A stretch of DNA of 64,000 bases from Candidatus Eiseniibacteriota bacterium (GCA_963717505.1 OY970342.1:3424001-3488000), one strand, 5' to 3'. Shown: positions 10,291 through 23,651, counted from the first letter of the stretch. Translations and numbers: made by a program. Notes: generated from the sequence alone by a model not told the origin.

Positions 10291-12708
10291 CTACAACAAC
10301 ACGATTCTGGCGATCGCCCGCTCGTCTCCGACTCGAAGTTCGAGGAAATACACTCCCGGCGCGATCCGCGCGCTGCGATCGGCACGGGACCAGCGCAGCG
10401 CTCGTGAGCCCACCTCCAGCCTGGCATTCAGCAGCTCGCCGACCTTGCGCCCGCCCAGGTCGAAGACGCGAAGCGCTGCCTGGCCAGCGTGGGTGAGCAC
10501 CAGCTCCACGGTGACGTCACCCACCGCGGGCGAGGGGCGCGCGCGGAGCGCGAGGCTCGACGCGCGCAATGGTTCCGGCTTCACACCGGTCCACGACGCG
10601 CTGCCCCGGTTCAGCAACACCGACGCCGACGCCGCGTCGGTGTTCGCGGTCACCAGGTCGGGCATGCCGTCGCCGTTCACATCGCCGACGGCGATGGAAG
10701 CAGGCCGCAGTCCGGTTCCGTAGTCCCGCTTCGGGCTCAGCGTGCCGTCGCCATTTCCAATCAGCACGGCAACGGTGGAGCCTCCTGCCACCGCGACGTC
10801 GGTGGCCCCGTCGCCATCCAGGTCCGCGACCGTCACGCTGCCCGAGCCGGCAGGATAGGATGCGGGTGGCCCGAACGTGCCATCACCGTTGCCCGGAAGC
10901 ACCTTCAGGGTCTGGTTGGACTCCGTCACGAGGAGGTCGGGGTTCTCGTCGTCGTTCAGATCGACGATCGCGATCCCGAGCCGGCCACCGACCGCAAGGT
11001 CGGTGCGCGGTTGCAGCGTGCCGTCGCCGTTGCCGAGCAGCACCGACACCGACGTCGACTTGCCGTTGGTCACGGCGACGTCGACATGACCGTCGCGGTT
11101 CAGATCGCCCACCGCGACTGCGTTCGGGTGGTCGCCAACCGCGTAGTCGGTGGACGCGCCGAACGTGCCATCGCCGACTCCGAGCAGCACCGAAACCTGA
11201 TCGAGCGTGTCGGCCACGGCCACGTCGAGCTCGCCGTCCTCGTCGAGGTCGGCGATCGCGATCGAGGTCGGTCCGGTTCCGGTCGCGAACGACATTGCGG
11301 GTCCGAAGCCACCGGTACCCAGGCCGCGCAGGACCGAGATCGTATTGCCGGCCAGGTTCGCGAGCACCAGGTCCAGGGCGCCATCGCCGTCGAGATCGTG
11401 AAGGAGCAGGGCATTCGGCTGGTTGCCCGCGACGTGGTCCTGCCCCGGGCCGAAGCCGCCGTTGCCGTCGCCGAACCGGATCGTGACCCCGGGCAATCCG
11501 TGACTCGCCACCGCGAGGTCGAGCGCGCCGTCGCCGTCGACGTCGCCGAGCGCAACCGCCGTGGGCGAGGACGGTGTCGCGACCGAGTGGTCCACGCCGA
11601 ACGAGCCGTTGCCGAGACCCGGCCGCAGCCACACGGCGTGCGCGTTGACGATCGCCAGGTCGAGATGGCCATCGTTGTCGAAATCCGCCACCCCGAGCCC
11701 GTACGGGCCGCTCGCGCCGTAGGTCCGATGAAGAACGAATGTCCCATCACCGAGTCCCCGGAGCACCGTGTTCGTGTTCGAGCGCGGGTTGCCGGTGACG
11801 AGGTCCAGCGTCCCGTCCTCGTCGACGTCGGCTGCGACGACGACCAGGGGGCCGCTGGCGGTCTTCACCTCGATCGGCGTCCCGAACGTTCCGTCGCCCA
11901 GCCCCAGGAAGACGGACACCGTCGAGCACGGGTGACAGCTGTTGCCCGCGGCGAGGTCGACGTCGCCGTCGACGTCGAAGTCTGCGGCCACGACGGTCTG
12001 GGACGCATAGCCGATCGGGTAGTCGGTGCGGGGCTGGAACGTGCCGTCGCCGTTTCCGAGCAGCACTGCCATGCTGAACTGGCCGCTGTTCGTGGCGGCA
12101 ACGTCGAGGGCGCCATCGTGGTTGAAGTCCGCGACCGCGAGCCCGTGCGGGTTGCTGCCGGTGGCGCCCTGGGTAATGGCTCCCAGCGTGCCGTCGCCGT
12201 TTCCGTGCAGGACCTGGACGGTGTTGTTGCCGCCGGTGGTCACGATCACGTCGGGCGTGTCATCGCCGTCCATGTCGGCGATCGCGATCGCCTGCGGGAA
12301 GGTGGCGACGGCGTACGACGTCGCGGGGCCGAACGTGCCGTCACCCAGACCGAGCCGCACGGAAACGGAGGCACCGGTCCAGTCGGCCGAAACGATGTCG
12401 GGCACGGTGTCGCCGTCGAGGTCCCCGAGACCGAGGGCACGCGGTCGCGAGCCCATCAGGTACACGACGCGCGGCGCGAACGTGCCGTCGCCGTTCGAGA
12501 GCAGGACTTCGACGCCACCGAACTCGGTGCCGATGACGAGATCCGGGTCACCGTCGGCGTCGAGGTCCGAGGTCGCTCCGAAGGTGCCATCGCCAGTATC
12601 GAAGGAGAGGAAGGGCGCTGCGAACCGCGTGTCGGCCAGCGCGGCCTGGAAGCAAACGGCCAGGAGGATGACCGACGCGAGCAGCGACGCTGTGCGAGTG
12701 CGGTCCAT
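10291..12708 (-). CDS. secreted FG-GAP/VCBS-repeat protein with FlgD-Ig/T9SS-CTD-like C-terminus
   Basis: Signal peptide; many D(L/F)DGDGxxD(L/V) repeats with GNGDGTF; C-terminal LRVFDLGGRKV...PGVYFL. Confidence 0.85.
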   Translation of the reverse strand: MDRTRTASLLASVILLAVCFQAALADTRFAAPFLSFDTGDGTFGATSDLDADGDPDLVIGTEFGGVEVLLSNGDGTFAPRVVYLMGSRPRALGLGDLDGDTVPDIVSADWTGASVSVRLGLGDGTFGPATSYAVATFPQAIAIADMDGDDTPDVIVTTGGNNTVQVLHGNGDGTLGAITQGATGSNPHGLAVADFNHDGALDVAATNSGQFSMAVLLGNGDGTFQPRTDYPIGYASQTVVAADFDVDGDVDLAAGNSCHPCSTVSVFLGLGDGTFGTPIEVKTASGPLVVVAADVDEDGTLDLVTGNPRSNTNTVLRGLGDGTFVLHRTYGASGPYGLGVADFDNDGHLDLAIVNAHAVWLRPGLGNGSFGVDHSVATPSSPTAVALGDVDGDGALDLAVASHGLPGVTIRFGDGNGGFGPGQDHVAGNQPNALLLHDLDGDGALDLVLANLAGNTISVLRGLGTGGFGPAMSFATGTGPTSIAIADLDEDGELDVAVADTLDQVSVLLGVGDGTFGASTDYAVGDHPNAVAVGDLNRDGHVDVAVTNGKSTSVSVLLGNGDGTLQPRTDLAVGGRLGIAIVDLNDDENPDLLVTESNQTLKVLPGNGDGTFGPPASYPAGSGSVTVADLDGDGATDVAVAGGSTVAVLIGNGDGTLSPKRDYGTGLRPASIAVGDVNGDGMPDLVTANTDAASASVLLNRGSASWTGVKPEPLRASSLALRARPSPAVGDVTVELVLTHAGQAALRVFDLGGRKVGELLNARLEVGSRALRWSRADRSARIAPGVYFLELRVGDERAIARIVLL

Positions 12709-13612: not shown

Positions 13613-13663
13613 TTGACAGCCGCCCCGCAATGCTGAAATATCAGCACTGCTGAAATTACAGCA
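13613..13663 (+). promoter_or_regulatory. blaI promoter with tandem palindromic operators
   Basis: TTGACA at 13613; TGCTGA-AATA-TCAGCA (13631-13646) and TGCTG-AAATTA-CAGCA (13648-13663). Confidence 0.75.
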
Positions 13664-13712
13664 GGCCCAAAGCACTCGAACTCTGTTCCGCAACCCGCGA
13701 GGACCCGCCCAC

Positions 13713-14114
13713 ATGCGCAAGCGCCCCGTCACCGAAGACCTCAGTCGCCGCGAGCGCCAGGTCATGGAGATCCTCCATCGCAAGGGGGAATCCACCGTCG
13801 CCGAGATCATGCAGGCGCTGCCCGACCCGCCGACCTATTCGGCGGTCCGATCGATCCTCCGCATCCTGGGAGGGAAGGGGATGGTGAGTCACCGCGAAGA
13901 CGGTCCACGCTACGTTTACGCGCCAGCCCGCCCGACCGACAAGGCGCGTGACGACGTCCTGGCGCACGTCGTCCAGACCTATTTCTCGGGCTCGGTCGAG
14001 CACACGGTGAATGCGCTCTTGCTCTTGTCCGACACGAAACTCAACGACACGGACCTCAACCGGCTGCGCGACCGGATTCGGCGCGCCCGCCAGAGCGAAG
14101 GGGACCGGACATGA
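13713..14114 (+). CDS. BlaI/MecI/CopY family repressor
   Basis: LSRRERQVMEIL...TYSAVRSILRIL..KG.V.....GPRYVY...YFSGS. Confidence 0.92.
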   Translation: MRKRPVTEDLSRRERQVMEILHRKGESTVAEIMQALPDPPTYSAVRSILRILGGKGMVSHREDGPRYVYAPARPTDKARDDVLAHVVQTYFSGSVEHTVNALLLLSDTKLNDTDLNRLRDRIRRARQSEGDRT

Positions 14115-16156
14115 TTCTCGGGATCTTCGATCCACTTGCGAGCCCTGCGACTGCAGCCGCGTTGGCCGCAGCGCTCACGCTGATCAAGATGACGCTCGTC
14201 CTGCTGGCGGCGCTCGCCGTCACACTCGCGATGCGTCGAGCGCCGGCGGGTGCTCGTCATCTGGTCTGGCTGGTGGCGCTGGCCACCATGCTCCTGATTC
14301 CGGTCGTGTCGGCCTGGGGGCCGGTCTCGTTGCCGGTGCTGCCCCAGGTCGCGAGCAAGACGTTGGGGTCGCCGGTCGCCACTGCATCGCTGTCGACTCC
14401 GACACCTGCGCAAGCGCCTACGCCACCAGTCCTGGCCGCGTCGAGCACAACGTCGCCGGGTCCGGCGAGCACGCCGGCCGCCGCCCCTCGTTCCTTCAGC
14501 GTCGGCGCGCTGATGCTGGCGATTTGGGCGTTGGGCATCCTCATCCTGCTCGGCAAGCTGGCGCTCGGCGCGTGGTCGGTTCGACGCATCGTCCGTGGGG
14601 CGCGTGTGCTCGACCGCACCGAGTGGCGGCAGCCGCTCTATGAGATCGCCGACCGCCTGGGGCTCCGTGATGCCCCCGAGTTGCTGCAGAGCGATCGCAT
14701 CACGATCCCGTTCGCCTCCGGGCTCTGGCGAAGCCGCATCGTGCTGCCGGTCGAGAGTCAGGAATGGAGCGAGGAGCGGCGGAGTGCTGTGCTCATGCAC
14801 GAGCTGGGTCACGTGCGCCGGCGCGATCTGGTCGGCCACACGCTGAGCCGGATCGTTTGCGCGCTCTACTGGTTCCACCCACTGGTGTGGACCGCGGCGC
14901 AACGCCTGCGCGCCGAGAGCGAGCGCGCGTGCGACGACCTGGCGCTCGGGCTGGGAGTGCGCCCGAGCGACTACGCCGAGCACCTGCTCGACATCGTGTC
15001 GGGAGTGCGCGATCGGCGCACGCCGGCGGTGGCGCTCGCGATGGCCAATCCGAACGAGTTCGAGGGGCGCATGCTGGCGATCCTCGATCCGCGCATCCCA
15101 CGCCGCGGACTCCGCCGCGCGCATGCGGCCTGGCTCGCCGGCACGCTGGCGGCACTGGCGCTGGTGGTCGGCGCCATGGCGCCCGTCCCGCGGACGACCG
15201 CGACGGCGGGGGAGTCCACACCCCCTGGTCCCGACGCCGTGCACGTCGCGCCGCAAGTCGTGTCGCGGGTCGAGCGCAAGTCGCAGAGCAAGACAACCGT
15301 CCGCCGCGAGACTCGCACCAAGAACTCGTCTGCTTTGGAGGAATCGACCGAGCCGATGGCGCCGATCGATGCCACGGAAGCGATTGCCATGGCTACCGCC
15401 GAAGACTCGGACACGAATGGCGACACCAAGGATCAGGACGGAAGCCGGAGGATCGCGGCTCTGGCCAAGGCGCTGCGGACGGATTCGAACGTCGAGGTCC
15501 GTCGAGTGGCCGCATGGGGCCTCGAGCGATTCGCCGAGTCCGATCAGGCGGCCGACCCGCTGGCGGCAGCGCTCGGAGCCGACGCTGCTGAGGAAGTGCG
15601 CGAGATGGCGGCCTGGGCGCTGTCGGAGAGCCGGGGGAACGCCGCGGCCATGGCAGCACTCCAGAAAGCATTCAAGAACGACAAGAGCCGGTCGGTGCGC
15701 CGCACCGCGGCTTGGGCGGCGGGGGAGATCGGTGATCGCTCGTCGGTCGCGGGGCTCATCAGTCTTCTGGCCGACACCGATGCCGACATCCGCGAAGTCG
15801 CGGCCTGGGCGATCGGCAGCTGCGAGCCCGAGAAGGCTCCGGCGGAGCTGGTTCGCCTGCTCTCGGACCCCAATCGCGACGTGCGGCTTTCGGTGGCCTG
15901 GGCGCTGAGCATGATCGAGGACCCGGAGACCGCCGACGAACTCGAGGCCGCGTTCAACCGCGAGAAGGACCCCGAGGTGCAGCAGGGTCTCATCCATGCG
16001 CTGGGCTCGATGGGGGATCGGGCAATCGACACCCTTACGCGACTCGTCGGCTCGTCCAATCCCGAGATCCGCGCCGTGGCGGTGGCCGCGCTGGCCGGCG
16101 GCAACGTGTCCGGACCCTGGCCATGGCCTCGGCCCGAGCCGCGCCCCTATCCCTAA
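14111..16156 (+). CDS. BlaR1-like M56 metallopeptidase with C-terminal HEAT repeats
   Basis: TM helices, HELGH zinc motif, YWFHPLVW..ESERACDD; VRxxAAWAL repeats; PWPWPRPEPRPYP tail. Confidence 0.9.
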   Translation: MILGIFDPLASPATAAALAAALTLIKMTLVLLAALAVTLAMRRAPAGARHLVWLVALATMLLIPVVSAWGPVSLPVLPQVASKTLGSPVATASLSTPTPAQAPTPPVLAASSTTSPGPASTPAAAPRSFSVGALMLAIWALGILILLGKLALGAWSVRRIVRGARVLDRTEWRQPLYEIADRLGLRDAPELLQSDRITIPFASGLWRSRIVLPVESQEWSEERRSAVLMHELGHVRRRDLVGHTLSRIVCALYWFHPLVWTAAQRLRAESERACDDLALGLGVRPSDYAEHLLDIVSGVRDRRTPAVALAMANPNEFEGRMLAILDPRIPRRGLRRAHAAWLAGTLAALALVVGAMAPVPRTTATAGESTPPGPDAVHVAPQVVSRVERKSQSKTTVRRETRTKNSSALEESTEPMAPIDATEAIAMATAEDSDTNGDTKDQDGSRRIAALAKALRTDSNVEVRRVAAWGLERFAESDQAADPLAAALGADAAEEVREMAAWALSESRGNAAAMAALQKAFKNDKSRSVRRTAAWAAGEIGDRSSVAGLISLLADTDADIREVAAWAIGSCEPEKAPAELVRLLSDPNRDVRLSVAWALSMIEDPETADELEAAFNREKDPEVQQGLIHALGSMGDRAIDTLTRLVGSSNPEIRAVAVAALAGGNVSGPWPWPRPEPRPYP

Positions 16157-16229
16157 AGAGAAGAAATAGAGCAGCGATCAGGAAACCGACCCATGAATCC
16201 GTCGAGGAGAGTCTTGCGCTGCCCGGTCG

Positions 16230-16245
16230 TGCTGAAATATCAGCA
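16230..16245. promoter_or_regulatory. second copy of the putative BlaI operator
   Basis: TGCTGAAATATCAGCA, identical to 13631-13646, 33 nt before the HEAT gene ATG. Confidence 0.75.
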
Positions 16246-16278
16246 CATGGTCGCGGCGCCCAACGATCGGAGCCGATC

Positions 16279-17607
16279 ATGAACCTGTTCGTCTTCCAGG
16301 CAGTCATTCTGCTGGTCACGATGCTCCCGAGCCACGCCGCGGCGGCGCCTGCCAGCAACACCGCGGTCTCGCAGGCGATCCATGACCTGATCGATTCGGC
16401 CCGCGGCGCGCCGGCCGTGCTCTGCGAGTACGCCGCGCGCTCGCTCCAGTCCGGATGGGGGTGGACGGATGCGCCGGCTTCTCCGCTCGGCGCACGCCGT
16501 CGGGGGTTTCACGAGAGCCAGCTCTCGACCGAGGACATTCGATTCCTGCTCGAGAGCCTCGACAGCCCGGACCCTTGCGTTCGCGAGCTGGCAGTGCGAA
16601 TCGTCGCCGGCGTCGAGCGCGAAGAGGTTACGACCGGGCTCCTGCAACGTCTCGCCTCGAGCGACTCGTCGATCCGGGTGACGGCCAGCCTCGGTCTCGG
16701 AATCGCCGAGCCCAAGCGCGCGGTCGAAGCGTTGATTCGCGCGACGGGAGACGTCTCGCCCAGCGTGCGCGCCAACGCGATCTGGGCTTTGGGCCGAATC
16801 GGAGACTCTCGCGCGGTGGCACCGGCAACCCACTGTCTCGAGGACCGATCGCCGCTCGTGCGCAGGACCGCGGCGGAAACGCTCGGGCACCTCGAGGCGA
16901 CCAGCGCGCTCCCGGCGCTGGTCCGGGCGCTCCAGGGTGACGACGTCGTGTCGGTCCGGCGCGTGGCGGCGTGGGCCATCGTTCAGATCCAGGGGAGCGA
17001 GTCGGCGCAGCACATTTCAGCGGCATTGCGCGACGACAAAGACGCTTCGGTCCGCGAGATGTGCGCATGGGGCCTCGGCAACCTCGACCAGCATTCCGCC
17101 GTGCCCCTGCTGGTGACGGCGGCGAAGAGCGATGTCGACGAAGAGGTGCGCGAAGCCGCGGCTTGGTCCCTGGGTGAGCACGGAGCAGAGTCCGGAGCCA
17201 AGGTGCTCGGCGAACTGGTCGAGCGGGATCGCAGCACCGAGGTGCGGTGCACGGCGGCGTGGGCCCTGGGTCAACTCGGACTGGAATCGGCACCGAAGGG
17301 GTTGATCGCAGCACTCTCCGACCCCGATCCCAAACTTCGACTCACGGCGGCATGGGCGCTCTCGGAGATCGGCGATCCGGCGGCCGTGCCTGCGCTCCGA
17401 ACCGCATTGTCGCGCGAGAAGAACGACCGGGCCCGTAAGGCGGAGGTGCGCGCGCTCATCCACTCGGGGGAGAGCGGGGAACGCCTGACCGAGCTGCTCG
17501 AGTCGGACGATCCCGAAATGCGCAAGATCGCGATCCAGGCGGTCGCGGGCCGGCACGGCATGGAACCGTGGCCCTGGCCGCAACCACGCCCTCGCCCGTT
17601 CCCCTGA
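16279..17607 (+). CDS. secreted HEAT-repeat protein
   Basis: Signal peptide (..LLVTMLPSHAAA); about 11 HEAT repeats; PWPWPQPRPRPFP tail. Confidence 0.85.
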   Translation: MNLFVFQAVILLVTMLPSHAAAAPASNTAVSQAIHDLIDSARGAPAVLCEYAARSLQSGWGWTDAPASPLGARRRGFHESQLSTEDIRFLLESLDSPDPCVRELAVRIVAGVEREEVTTGLLQRLASSDSSIRVTASLGLGIAEPKRAVEALIRATGDVSPSVRANAIWALGRIGDSRAVAPATHCLEDRSPLVRRTAAETLGHLEATSALPALVRALQGDDVVSVRRVAAWAIVQIQGSESAQHISAALRDDKDASVREMCAWGLGNLDQHSAVPLLVTAAKSDVDEEVREAAAWSLGEHGAESGAKVLGELVERDRSTEVRCTAAWALGQLGLESAPKGLIAALSDPDPKLRLTAAWALSEIGDPAAVPALRTALSREKNDRARKAEVRALIHSGESGERLTELLESDDPEMRKIAIQAVAGRHGMEPWPWPQPRPRPFP

Positions 17608-20664: not shown

Positions 20665-23358
20665 CTACTTCAGCCGCACCACCTTCTGCTTCAGTGTTTC
20701 TCCACCCACTTTGACCTGCGCCCAGAAGACGCCCGGCCCGGCGTCACGCCCGCGGTCGTCGCGCCCGTTCCATATCATCTGGTGGTCTCCACCCCCGAGG
20801 TGGCCGATCCGACGCGAGTGGATCATGCGCCCGCGCGCGTCGTAGACCGTCAGCTCCACTGCAGCCGGACGAGCCAAGGTCAGGGCCAGCTCCAGCGAGC
20901 CGGCGAACGGATTGCGCCGCGTCTCGAGCCGGGTGCGGTCGGCCGCGGGCTCGTCCCCGACCGCCACGGTGGTCACGGTCGAATCGCCGGCCATCAGTAC
21001 CGGCGGCGACTTCCCGTGAGCGTTCCACGCGTCGAACATGGCCTGTCCATGGCTGGTGGTGGTGTTCTCGTCGCGCAGGAATTCCATGTAATCCTTGGAC
21101 GTCGTCTGATAGTAGAGACGCGCCACGACTCTGGCGGTTGTCCCCGGCAGGGTGAACGTCGAGGTGTCCCAATTCTGACCGTCCGCGTAGCGCGGCCCGG
21201 GCCGAGTCGGGTCCACCGGCCGGCCTCCGAAATTGTCGAACCCGGCGTTGGTGAACCCCACGGGCGGAATGCGATTGTCCTTGTAGATGGTGTCGTTCAA
21301 CGCAAAGTGGAACGACTCGCCGTGCGCCGCGCCCACCGCGGCCGCGAGCGCGGGGGAGATGCCGAGGTGCGTCTCGTAGACCACTCCACCCTCGTCACGC
21401 GTGAGCACGCCGGTGGCGGCATCGTAGGCCCCCGACTCGTAGATCTTCACGCCGTCCGAGTCGTAGGCGATCACGTTGAGCCACATGCGCCGGCCCTCGG
21501 GGTATCCGGTGGGCAGTTTGTGGCCGGTTCGGTTGGTCACCGTCACGGTCGCGACCCACGACTGATACCCGGGCGCCACCGAGACGTCGACCAGTGACGC
21601 CTTCTGCAGCATGCTCACGGCGCGCGCCGCGCCATCGGCGAGTGCCATGGCGTTGGTTTCGGTGGGGTAGAGTGACGCGATGACCGGTCCGATCCAGGCG
21701 TTGCCGCCCATCATGTCGTGGAGCGGCAGGTCGGGGCGGATCGGCGCCGAGACGTCGTTGCAGCCCTTGCCGTTGACGTCACGCAGGTGGCAATCCTGGC
21801 AGCTCGACACTATGCCGCCCGGCTTGTTCCCCGCGAACTCCGGCGCGTACACGCCACCGGGGAACGCGCTGTTCTTCCATTCGCTGTAGGTGCGCTCGAG
21901 CGGCATCAGCACGGTCGAGCTGACCGAGGTGGCAGCCTGATTGAGCGGACCCGGCACGTAGTCCGCGGTCATCGCCACGCGGTCGAACGCCGGGTTCGAG
22001 ACGTCGTGGCAGGTGCCGCAGAAGTCGCTCGACGCATGGAACGGCGACACCAGATAGGCGTGGGGCGCTGAGGTCACGAACGGTCCGCGCTTGCGCGGCA
22101 GCGGGTCCATCACGAACTGTCCGTTGGAGTACGAGGTCGGCCGATGCGCCGGCAGCATGCCGTTGAGGATGGCTTCGTCCTCGGGAGGGCTCACGCCCGC
22201 CTGATAGTTGGGATCGACCGCGCGGTGGCAGAAGTCGCAGGCCATGCCGTGACGGTCGAAAGCCGTGAGCTGGCTCCCGCTCGTGGGCTGGCTGCGGCCG
22301 CCCAACCAACCGAACGGCGAGTGGCAGCGCAGGCACAAGTCGCCCGAAGAGGGAGCGTCCTGCTCGGCAACGGCCATGGCCGCGTAGAAGAGCGGATCGC
22401 GGGCCGACTGTCCCATCAACATGCCCTCGAAGTTGTGGCCGGGCTCGACCGCGGGGTCGTAGCCCCCGTGGCAATTGACGCACAGGTTCGGGCCGTCGAA
22501 CGTGCCCGCTTCGAGCGGCTGCGATCCGGGCAGCTCGAAGTCGCGGAGGGTGGTCGGCACGATGCCGCCGGACTGCTGGACGATCGTGAACAAGCTGTTG
22601 CTGATGTCCTCGCCCTGGTTGCCGGCAGCGTCGCGCGCCACCACCCGCACCCGGTTGGTCGCGCCCGGCATGTTGTGCACGAACCACAGGAACAGTCCGG
22701 TGTTCGACAGGTTCCTGCCCAGCGGCTTCCACGGCGCACTCTCGGAGTCGCGGAAGTAGACGTCGACCGCCACGACGCCGACGTTGTCAGTGGCCGTCCA
22801 CGTCAGGTTGTGCGCGGTGCCGCCGTTCCAGTTCTCGCCGCCGTTGGGCCCGGTAATCGTGACTACCGGATTCTGCGTGTCGCTGCCCATGGTCGGCACC
22901 AGGTAGCCGAGGATCTCGGCCACGGTCACGTTCGTGACGTTGTTGACGTTGGCGGGGGAGAGCCCAGGGAAGGTGGGCGTGTTCGTGTACGGCGCTCCCG
23001 CGGTGATCTCGGTGCCCTGGGTGTAGCCGTCGGTGTCCGAGTCCTCGTTGGCGACCGACAGAATGCGCGTGGTCAGACAGGCCTGGTCGTTGCCGCCGCA
23101 GGCCGGGGCCTGGTTGATTGCGGCTTCGACCCGCTGGCCATAAAGGTTACGCGTGCCGCCACCGTTGAAATCGTAGTGGCAGGCGCCGCAGTGACCTGAG
23201 TTGCTCGGAAGGTTGTCGAGACGCGTGCCGGTTGCCGAAGGGTAGGCGTTGAAGAAGGCATCGCGGATCTTTGGTCGGGCAAGCGCGGTGGTCGCACTCG
23301 CCGCCAGCAGCACCAGAACCAGCCAGGCGGCCGGAGTAACCCGAAGTGCGGGACGCAT
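20665..23358 (-). CDS. secreted multiheme c-type cytochrome (6 CxxCH) with Ig-like and FlgD/CTD-like domains
   Basis: CGACH, CVNCH, CLRCH, CDFCH, CGTCH, CQDCH; GHKLPTG motif; signal peptide; C-terminal RNPF...VYDARGR...WNGRDDRG. Confidence 0.85.
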   Translation of the reverse strand: MRPALRVTPAAWLVLVLLAASATTALARPKIRDAFFNAYPSATGTRLDNLPSNSGHCGACHYDFNGGGTRNLYGQRVEAAINQAPACGGNDQACLTTRILSVANEDSDTDGYTQGTEITAGAPYTNTPTFPGLSPANVNNVTNVTVAEILGYLVPTMGSDTQNPVVTITGPNGGENWNGGTAHNLTWTATDNVGVVAVDVYFRDSESAPWKPLGRNLSNTGLFLWFVHNMPGATNRVRVVARDAAGNQGEDISNSLFTIVQQSGGIVPTTLRDFELPGSQPLEAGTFDGPNLCVNCHGGYDPAVEPGHNFEGMLMGQSARDPLFYAAMAVAEQDAPSSGDLCLRCHSPFGWLGGRSQPTSGSQLTAFDRHGMACDFCHRAVDPNYQAGVSPPEDEAILNGMLPAHRPTSYSNGQFVMDPLPRKRGPFVTSAPHAYLVSPFHASSDFCGTCHDVSNPAFDRVAMTADYVPGPLNQAATSVSSTVLMPLERTYSEWKNSAFPGGVYAPEFAGNKPGGIVSSCQDCHLRDVNGKGCNDVSAPIRPDLPLHDMMGGNAWIGPVIASLYPTETNAMALADGAARAVSMLQKASLVDVSVAPGYQSWVATVTVTNRTGHKLPTGYPEGRRMWLNVIAYDSDGVKIYESGAYDAATGVLTRDEGGVVYETHLGISPALAAAVGAAHGESFHFALNDTIYKDNRIPPVGFTNAGFDNFGGRPVDPTRPGPRYADGQNWDTSTFTLPGTTARVVARLYYQTTSKDYMEFLRDENTTTSHGQAMFDAWNAHGKSPPVLMAGDSTVTTVAVGDEPAADRTRLETRRNPFAGSLELALTLARPAAVELTVYDARGRMIHSRRIGHLGGGDHQMIWNGRDDRGRDAGPGVFWAQVKVGGETLKQKVVRLK

Positions 23359-23413
23359 GGGGCACCTCCAATCTCGGGCCTCGCCGGAGCGGAGCCGTCG
23401 CGGAGGTTGATTG

Positions 23414-23429
23414 AGCATTGGATGTGCCG
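23414..23429 (-). promoter_or_regulatory. putative sigma54 promoter of the multiheme gene
   Basis: CGGCACATCCAATGCT (GG-N10-GC) about 55 nt upstream of the ATG. Confidence 0.55.
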
Positions 23430-23651
23430 GCGCGGTGTGGCCGAGGCCCTCGATTCGAGACCCACGCAGAGGGCTATTCCAACGATGGTTCGCGCTGCCA
23501 TCGGCGAGGACCTGGCCGGCCGTCGAGGGAGGGATCCCTGCCATCGGGTCAGGTCGGTGACGCGGGTGGCAGGCGCCGCCTGCACACTGCGAGCGGGCCT
23601 CGGCGTGAGCCGACCTCTCTTGCCCGCGCTCCCGGTCGTGGCCATAGTCTA

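Follow-up and report, generated by a model that had tools for sequence, protein, structure and literature searches.

Why should a membrane protease and an exported protein, encoded side by side, end in nearly the same thirteen residues? The question is raised by a three-gene cassette of Candidatus Eiseniibacteriota bacterium, located at 13613-17607 of a 64,000-nucleotide stretch (GCA_963717505.1 OY970342.1:3424001-3488000, here called the window, with a GC content of ~67%) from a single-contig genome of 4.16 Mb. The three genes, all on the + strand, encode a BlaI-type repressor, an M56 (BlaR1-like) metalloprotease with a HEAT-repeat sensor domain, and a protein composed of HEAT repeats only. 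Relatives carry the labels Gemmatimonadales or Gemmatimonadaceae. A first-pass annotation of this DNA had read the genes as a repressor, its sensor and a secreted HEAT protein, and Pfam matches, the layout of the open reading frames (ORFs) and the topology agree with it. The near-identical tail that it had assigned to sensor and exported protein was found at the translated ORF ends: both HEAT proteins finish in PWPWPxPxPRPxP, the sensor with GPWPWPRPEPRPYP and the exported protein with EPWPWPQPRPRPFP.

Conservation and distribution of the Trp-Pro tail

The tail is specific to this pair of proteins within the genome. A six-frame scan of the 4.16 Mb found PWPWP as a terminal motif in only two long ORFs, those of the cassette (734 and 623 aa, measured stop to stop), while the remaining five PWPWP matches were internal to ORFs of 64-116 aa. 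Among the best 120 homologs of the exported protein by whole-protein similarity (40-67% identity), the motif PWPWPxPxPxPxP stands at or close to the C-terminus in 114, 111 have the exact ending PWPWPxPRPRPxP and 116 have some variant of the tail; the four tail-less ones appear truncated or frameshifted. When homologs were chosen by the protease domain alone, a choice blind to the tail, it was present in 112/120, and the other eight consisted of three fragments, one apparent frameshift and four proteins with a common, different ending and a longer HEAT array. The mean column identity of the exported protein was 0.94 in the tail vs 0.63 in the rest, and nothing else in either protein is as conserved as these 13 residues.

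One genome per species was searched with a degenerate DNA pattern encoding the tail and a following stop codon, and at least 119 loci matched. Among the matches listed, to which the counts in this paragraph refer, 118 ORFs in 95 loci end in frame with the motif. They comprise 34 M56-HEAT proteins, 81 HEAT-only proteins (many cut by the locus ends) and three ORFs without a match, two of which look like off-frame junk and one of which has a HEAT-like end past a probable frameshift. The tail is thus on HEAT or M56-HEAT proteins in 115/118 cases. Another 24 loci, mostly from actinomycetes and other high-GC genomes, contain no tail ORF and are chance DNA matches. By title, 85 of the 93 HEAT-type loci are from Gemmatimonadota, four from 'bacterium' bins and four from bins of other phyla. 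Conservation in homologs and absence from unrelated proteins, on which the first-pass annotation had staked its proposal, are therefore seen in both homolog sets, in the matches listed and in the genome scan.

The tailed cassettes in bins of other phyla are L033 (Verrucomicrobiia), L081 (Polyangiales), L095 (Anaeromyxobacter) and L116 (Eisenbacteria). The L033 sensor domain is the closest to that of the window (60% identity), so mis-binning is likely, at least for L033. The cassettes of L111, L055 and L080 are split over several overlapping ORFs, that is, by frameshifts that are possibly assembly errors or decay. A tailed HEAT gene is also present on a 2171-base contig (L045) of a cultured organism, Roseisolibacter sp. 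H3M3-2 (Gemmatimonadota). A looser pattern, W-P-x-P-x-P-x-P-R-P-x-P, was run on 206 genomes of the class, where a reversed-pattern control matched about as often, as happens in high-GC DNA; true tail pairs were recognised by eye in G000, G099, G102, G118 and G130, with one copy in G162, all of the window's own family, which gives a rough idea of a patchy distribution in the class.

A short C-terminal, proline-rich segment of this kind, most copies of which finish with Pro and then the stop codon (103/112 sensors), could be a general tag for export or sorting, or a feature acting on DNA, on RNA or through translation stalling, with no role in the mature protein. However, the tail is confined to two paralogous families and is followed by no transmembrane or basic segment: neither a hydrophobic helix with a basic end nor a folded domain of ~80 residues was found after the motif, and the proteins stop 0-8 residues beyond it. 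Sorting signals of the PEP-CTERM, LPXTG, GlyGly-CTERM and T9SS type were considered and rejected, given the two ORFs in the genome and the families to which the tail is restricted elsewhere among the matches listed. At the nucleotide level, the tails draw on all four Pro codons and on all six for Arg, each of the three stop codons occurs, third positions are free to vary and no tandem DNA repeat was found beneath the tail; the constraint therefore lies on the amino acids. Consecutive prolines do not occur, and some tails continue past the motif by up to six, rarely eight, residues, from which it follows that a free C-terminus is not required. The sorting-tag and nucleic-acid readings are essentially excluded, and that the tail has no role in the mature protein is highly improbable.

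Two other proteins of the window, a 13-repeat FG-GAP protein (10291-12708, - strand) and a 959-aa protein with many CxxCH-like motifs (20665-23544, - strand), have by eye similar beta-rich C-terminal stretches of ~80 residues, which may be the real generic C-terminal sorting domain of this genome.

The tail comes in two flavours, G-PWPWPRP[EQ]PRP[FY]P in sensors and [DN]-PWPWPxPRPRPFP in exported proteins.

A BlaI-type unit with a shared operator

The cassette has the anatomy of a BlaI/BlaR1-type locus (Table 1). The start of the M56-HEAT gene overlaps the blaI stop by 4 bases (ATGA), and the shared upstream operator noted in the first-pass annotation is indeed there, in exact copies upstream of blaI and of the exported HEAT gene. 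Sites 1 and 2 sit in a 17-bp tandem repeat (13627-13663). The chance expectation was 0.17 matches, and 6 matches were reached in 0/100 shuffles. In related loci the operator was located by a core-pattern search, since exact shared k-mers recovered only ~1/3 of them. The core TGA-W4-TCA was found upstream of blaI in 31/32 evaluable loci, as a doublet with 17-bp spacing in 18/32, and just past the M56 stop in 42/46 evaluable loci. Elsewhere in the 334,690 bp of related loci it occurs at only 2 sites, each preceding a HEAT gene. A scan for consensus promoters and terminators found nothing, nor was there a full sigma-70 match.

Table 1. Features of the cassette and their positions in the window.
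Feature	Position	Strand	Basis or remark
TTGACA hexamer, possible -35 box, 17 nt 5' of the AT-rich operator core	13614..13619	+	inferred from a reading of the sequence
Operator site 1, upstream of blaI, GCTGAAATATCAGC, palindromic arms GCTGA/TCAGC	13632..13645	.	exact
Operator site 2, GCTGAAATTACAGC, 17 bp after site 1	13649..13662	.	2 mismatches
blaI-type winged-helix repressor, 133 aa	13713..14114	+	PF03965 E 2.4e-24, 86.4 bits vs cut-off 22.6, residues 10-123
M56 (BlaR1-like) membrane metalloprotease with extracytoplasmic HEAT sensor, 681 aa	14111..16156	+	PF05569 E 2.1e-39; HEAT_2 E 6.1e-44
EL1-like extracytoplasmic loop, residues 70-128, Pro/Ser/Thr/Ala-rich	14318..14494	+	little conserved
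Sensor HEAT domain, ~residues 446-668, five Trp-ladder repeats	15446..16114	+	AlphaFold2 and alignment
Sensor tail PWPWPRPEPRPYP, residues 669-681	16115..16153	+	tail in 112/120 protease-chosen homologs
Operator site 3, between M56 stop and HEAT gene start	16231..16244	.	exact copy of GCTGAAATATCAGC
Exported HEAT-repeat paralog of the sensor, 442 aa, signal-peptide-like N-terminus	16279..17607	+	HEAT_2 E 1.7e-70
Conserved Trp/Pro-rich loop, mature residues 39-51, consensus GWGxWxDAPxTPL	16450..16488	+	pLDDT 43-48, predicted without fixed structure
Exported-protein tail PWPWPQPRPRPFP, residues 430-442	17566..17604	+	tail in 114/120 homologs

In the cassette-bearing loci among the matches listed, no gene that flanks the cassette in the window turned up beside it again, and the unit is therefore the three genes. 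A short-chain dehydrogenase was considered as a conserved neighbour and rejected, as it matched only L002, L049 and L083, which are cassette-less chance pattern matches. The candidate operator, predicted from sequence as the binding site of BlaI, supports a putative BlaI-controlled unit with paralogous sensor and effector, and the cassette is, as read from its genes and sites, a self-contained, autoregulated BlaI/BlaR1-type regulated-proteolysis switch of Gemmatimonadota.

The M56 domain of the sensor (135.9 bits vs a cut-off of 31) spans residues 23-323, with the HELGH motif at residue 230 and four hydrophobic segments (residues 19-37, 51-69, 129-147 and 339-357). By analogy with BlaR1, the protease loop would be cytoplasmic and the C-terminal domain outward-facing. 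This domain has four HEAT_2 stretches, is tethered to the membrane part by an unconserved linker of ~85 residues and was modelled by AlphaFold2 (last 255 residues) with helical repeats throughout and a pLDDT of 90.4. Pfam and AlphaFold2 showed HEAT repeats only in it and no penicillin-binding (transpeptidase-like) domain. In NCBIfam, none of the three proteins reached the cut-off of a family: the CopY/TcrY and BlaI matches of the repressor fall under theirs, and blaR1_generic gave the sensor 85.6 bits vs a cut-off of 400, the match being confined to the protease part. The only other M56 protease of the genome (G000:C1:2195047-2197650, outside the window) has by eye a TPR-like C-terminal domain and is untailed.

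The third gene lies in a long ORF that opens at 16123 and overlaps the 3' end of the M56 gene; translation probably starts at the ATG at 16279. Its product contains six HEAT_2 stretches behind a hydrophobic signal-like N-terminal segment and is predicted to be Sec-exported; several homologs open, by eye, with lipobox-like or signal-like N-termini. The mature protein was modelled as a regular solenoid of two-helix repeats (pLDDT 89.8), and an alignment of 217 residues (39% identity, E 2e-36) shows its C-terminal half to be a paralog of the sensor HEAT domain, collinear with it. The exported protein has in addition the conserved GWGxWxDAPxTPL segment, absent from the sensor, with an invariant Cys on either side (mature residues 30 and 81); the two cysteines could be joined by a disulfide in the periplasm.

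The concave Trp ladder and candidate roles of the tail

A recurring Trp had been described in the repeats of both proteins, and it was recovered in five copies in the sensor and six in the exported protein. The Glu said to follow it often is variable in position, and the conserved acidic residue is instead the Glu of VRE, which precedes the Trp. Foldseek gave artificial alphaRep binders as the nearest solved folds (TM 0.85-0.90, rmsd 2.5-4.8, 33-38% identity; 4zv6_A, TM 0.90). Aligned to these chains, the ladder Trp falls on variable position 26 and the VRE Glu on position 22. The concave binding face of alphaRep proteins comprises positions 18, 19, 22, 23, 26 and 30 (PMC3754942). Entropy across 169 exported proteins with the tail is 0.84, 0.77 and 0.44 at positions 22, 23 and 26, a conservation comparable to that of the structural core, and positions 18, 19 and 30 vary. 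Trp occupies position 26 in 56-64% of the repeats of tailed proteins vs 8.3% (218/2619) in 132 untailed HEAT representatives, and it does so in 5-6 successive repeats, invariant across homologs. The Trp-lined groove postulated earlier thus stands: by the alphaRep alignment the ladder is on the concave face, as a genuine ligand surface particular to this family.

The same proteins combine a conserved Trp/acidic groove with an extended peptide that is conserved as well, and the tail may dock in the groove as a pseudo-ligand within the BlaI/BlaR1-type switch. This is the reading we hold, tentatively, as a possibility that falls somewhat short of being probable. In BlaR1, an internal segment, the EL1 loop, lies in the sensor groove as a displaceable pseudo-ligand and is displaced by the antibiotic (PMC9834060). 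The EL1-like loop of the present sensor scores mostly 1-3 of 9 in conservation across 42 aligned M56-HEAT proteins, which leaves the tail as the only conserved, flexible and outward-facing segment of the sensor. The tail would be an extended, polyproline-II-like docking peptide, sitting in the Trp/acidic groove of the HEAT domain, its own or that of the paralog, and taking the role that EL1 has in BlaR1. An external ligand would compete for the groove and free the sensor tail, the sensor conformation would shift, the cytoplasmic zinc protease would be activated and BlaI cut, and both promoters would open. The induced soluble paralog, whose tail is more basic (PRPRP vs PEPRP), would then absorb the ligand or compete for tails and grooves, providing feedback. 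Candidate ligands would be peptides, extended and either Pro-rich or basic, and glycan strands that stack on the Trp ladder.

Several observations weigh against docking. AlphaFold2 placed the tail of both proteins without confidence (pLDDT 57-67), although these values are above the 43-49 of plainly disordered loops in the same models; the docked EL1 segment of BlaR1 is reported with a pLDDT of 60-75 (PMC9834060). The untailed M56-HEAT representatives P0140, P0172, P0230 and P0237 keep Trp-rich repeats, and the close sensors P0300, P0365, P0386 and P0387 are tail-less, yet the downstream exported protein of that locus type is tailed. Since tail-less sensors exist, the groove must have another ligand and a sensor can work without a tail of its own. 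In some tails 1-6 extra residues follow the motif. Covariation was computed as mutual information with average product correction (APC) on the 169 tailed exported proteins (effective number 111), in which 10 of the 13 tail positions are too conserved to be informative. The variable ones (the residue before the motif, motif position 6 and motif position 12) gave weak couplings of 0.09-0.16 nats, with 8 of the 24 top partners at concave positions, not clearly focused on the groove. Finally, neither a HEAT-sensor BlaR nor the tail was the subject of any paper or experiment found in the literature outside subscription journals and supplementary files. Prediction of a complex between sensor domain and exported protein (best score 0.24, with the mark at 0.32) speaks neither for nor against binding. 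The pseudo-ligand mechanism of the first-pass annotation therefore keeps the operator unit, the conservation of the tail, the Trp ladder and the EL1 precedent on its side, and has the low tail pLDDT and the weak covariation against it.

The loose placement of the tail is also what would be expected for a partner outside the protein, such as the envelope. As Trp and Arg prefer membrane interfaces, an interfacial Trp/Arg/Pro tail could pin both the distal end of the sensor and the soluble paralog to a membrane leaflet, peptidoglycan or an outer-membrane protein, and the switch would report a perturbation of the envelope once this contact is lost. The tail is extracytoplasmic on both proteins and stands at the end distant from the membrane tether, which fits such an anchor, as do the distant M56-HEAT proteins P0150, P0189, P0204 and P0250, whose Trp-less basic (P-[RQK])n tails resemble rigid spacers or polyanion-binding segments. 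However, a general anchor should be borne by other exported proteins of the genome, and only these two carry the tail; moreover, the steady difference between sensor and exported protein at motif position 8 (E/Q vs R) is left unexplained, and the conserved concave stripe would still need a ligand. An envelope anchor is rather unlikely on this balance.

A near-invariant, short and unstructured peptide is also typical of enzyme recognition motifs, and the residue before the motif is fixed in each family (Gly in 103/112 sensors, Asp or Asn in most exported proteins). The tail could accordingly be a site at which a periplasmic protease or prolyl isomerase controls turnover or activation, or the source of a clipped signalling peptide read by the groove, as in autoinduction. 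Nevertheless, no protease or isomerase gene is conserved beside the cassette, and recognition of a free C-terminus is unlikely given that the last residue of the motif is not always terminal. A role in recognition or processing is thus distinctly improbable.

Within the docking reading, the tail may go further and be a mimic of the true signal. The cassette would then be a receptor-and-decoy defence. Its BlaR1-type protease would use an importin-like Trp ladder to sense extended peptides that are proline-rich or cationic, or else a glycan strand: the tethered tail would be displaced, the protease would fire and a soluble copy of the receptor would flood the periplasm and mop up the ligand. This extension is unlikely, but if it were true, the sensor would be the first peptide-sensing relative of BlaR1 and a bacterial example of a HEAT receptor that a pseudo-ligand autoinhibits.

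Some relatives of the sensor depart from the tailed layout. The proteins P0150, P0189, P0204 and P0250 mentioned above are longer (832-870 aa), and their alternating-proline tails are longer as well. Other distant M56-HEAT proteins (P0140, P0172, P0205, P0220, P0226, P0230 and P0237) are tail-less, several of them with Trp-rich repeats. In the variant layout of L014 (1-3588) and L024, represented by P0300, P0365, P0386 and P0387, the untailed sensor has an ending of the ...EYFGEEGDQ type, and at least one additional tail-less HEAT gene precedes the tailed exported gene.

Significance and comparison with known systems

BlaIR-like systems without a beta-lactam sensor are common and their signals are almost all unknown, according to a preprint (10.64898/2026.04.08.717257). 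The present cassette offers unusually sharp experimental handles on such a system: its sensor is folded and has a conserved groove lined by Trp, a soluble paralog is under the same control, the tail is a peptide of only 13 residues and the operator is simple. The Roseisolibacter isolate of L045 is a possible experimental host. At stake is whether receptors of this family generally carry a pseudo-ligand of their own, in the way that BlaR1 carries EL1. Given its likeness to alphaRep proteins, the sensor could also be turned by engineering into a switch coupled to a binder.

Among repeat proteins, the alphaRep binders and their natural, thermostable HEAT-like parents have the same repeat and fold (within the TM and identity ranges given above), and the assignment of the cassette proteins to HEAT-like, alphaRep-type solenoids agrees with the HEAT_2 matches (E 1.7e-70 and 6.1e-44) and with models of pLDDT ~90. 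In the natural parents the concave positions are hypervariable, whereas the proteins described here conserve 22, 23 and 26, the last of these as Trp, and the protein is exported and tailed. Importin-alpha shares the concave aromatic ladder and the idea of a built-in competing peptide, but its Foldseek matches were weaker (TM 0.37-0.47) and it is built of armadillo rather than HEAT-like repeats. Its autoinhibition, invoked by the first-pass annotation as the work of its own tail, is due to the N-terminal basic IBB segment and not to a C-terminal tail. Proline-rich antimicrobial peptides are free, short and secreted, with PRP repeats, whereas the tail forms the last 13 residues of proteins of 442 and 681 residues; this link would be a resemblance of motifs only.

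The closest functional parallels are BlaI/BlaR1 and MecI/MecR1 of Staphylococcus aureus and Bacillus licheniformis. They share with the cassette a winged-helix repressor and a four-helix M56 zinc protease with HExxH in a cytoplasmic loop, an extracytoplasmic C-terminal sensor, palindromic operators 5' of the regulator operon and of the effector gene, and an effector related to the sensor in ligand specificity. In BlaR1, however, the sensor is a penicillin-binding fold and not a HEAT solenoid; here the effector is no enzyme but a paralog of the sensor, and both are tailed. The internal pseudo-ligand EL1 occupies the sensor groove of BlaR1 (PMC9834060), whereas the EL1-like loop of the cassette is unconserved. 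Repressor, protease, gene arrangement and operator are thus those of the BlaI/BlaR1 family, and the penicillin-binding sensor is not. CenIR of Clostridioides difficile likewise combines a BlaI-like repressor with an M56 protease that has no transpeptidase-like sensor; the C-terminal part of CenR is short and predicted to be disordered (10.64898/2026.04.08.717257), whereas the corresponding part of the cassette's sensor is a well-folded HEAT domain whose groove is conserved, as is its tail, and which has a secreted paralog. The cassette belongs among the BlaIR-like systems without a penicillin-binding domain, which form a large and little-studied set (10.64898/2026.04.08.717257).

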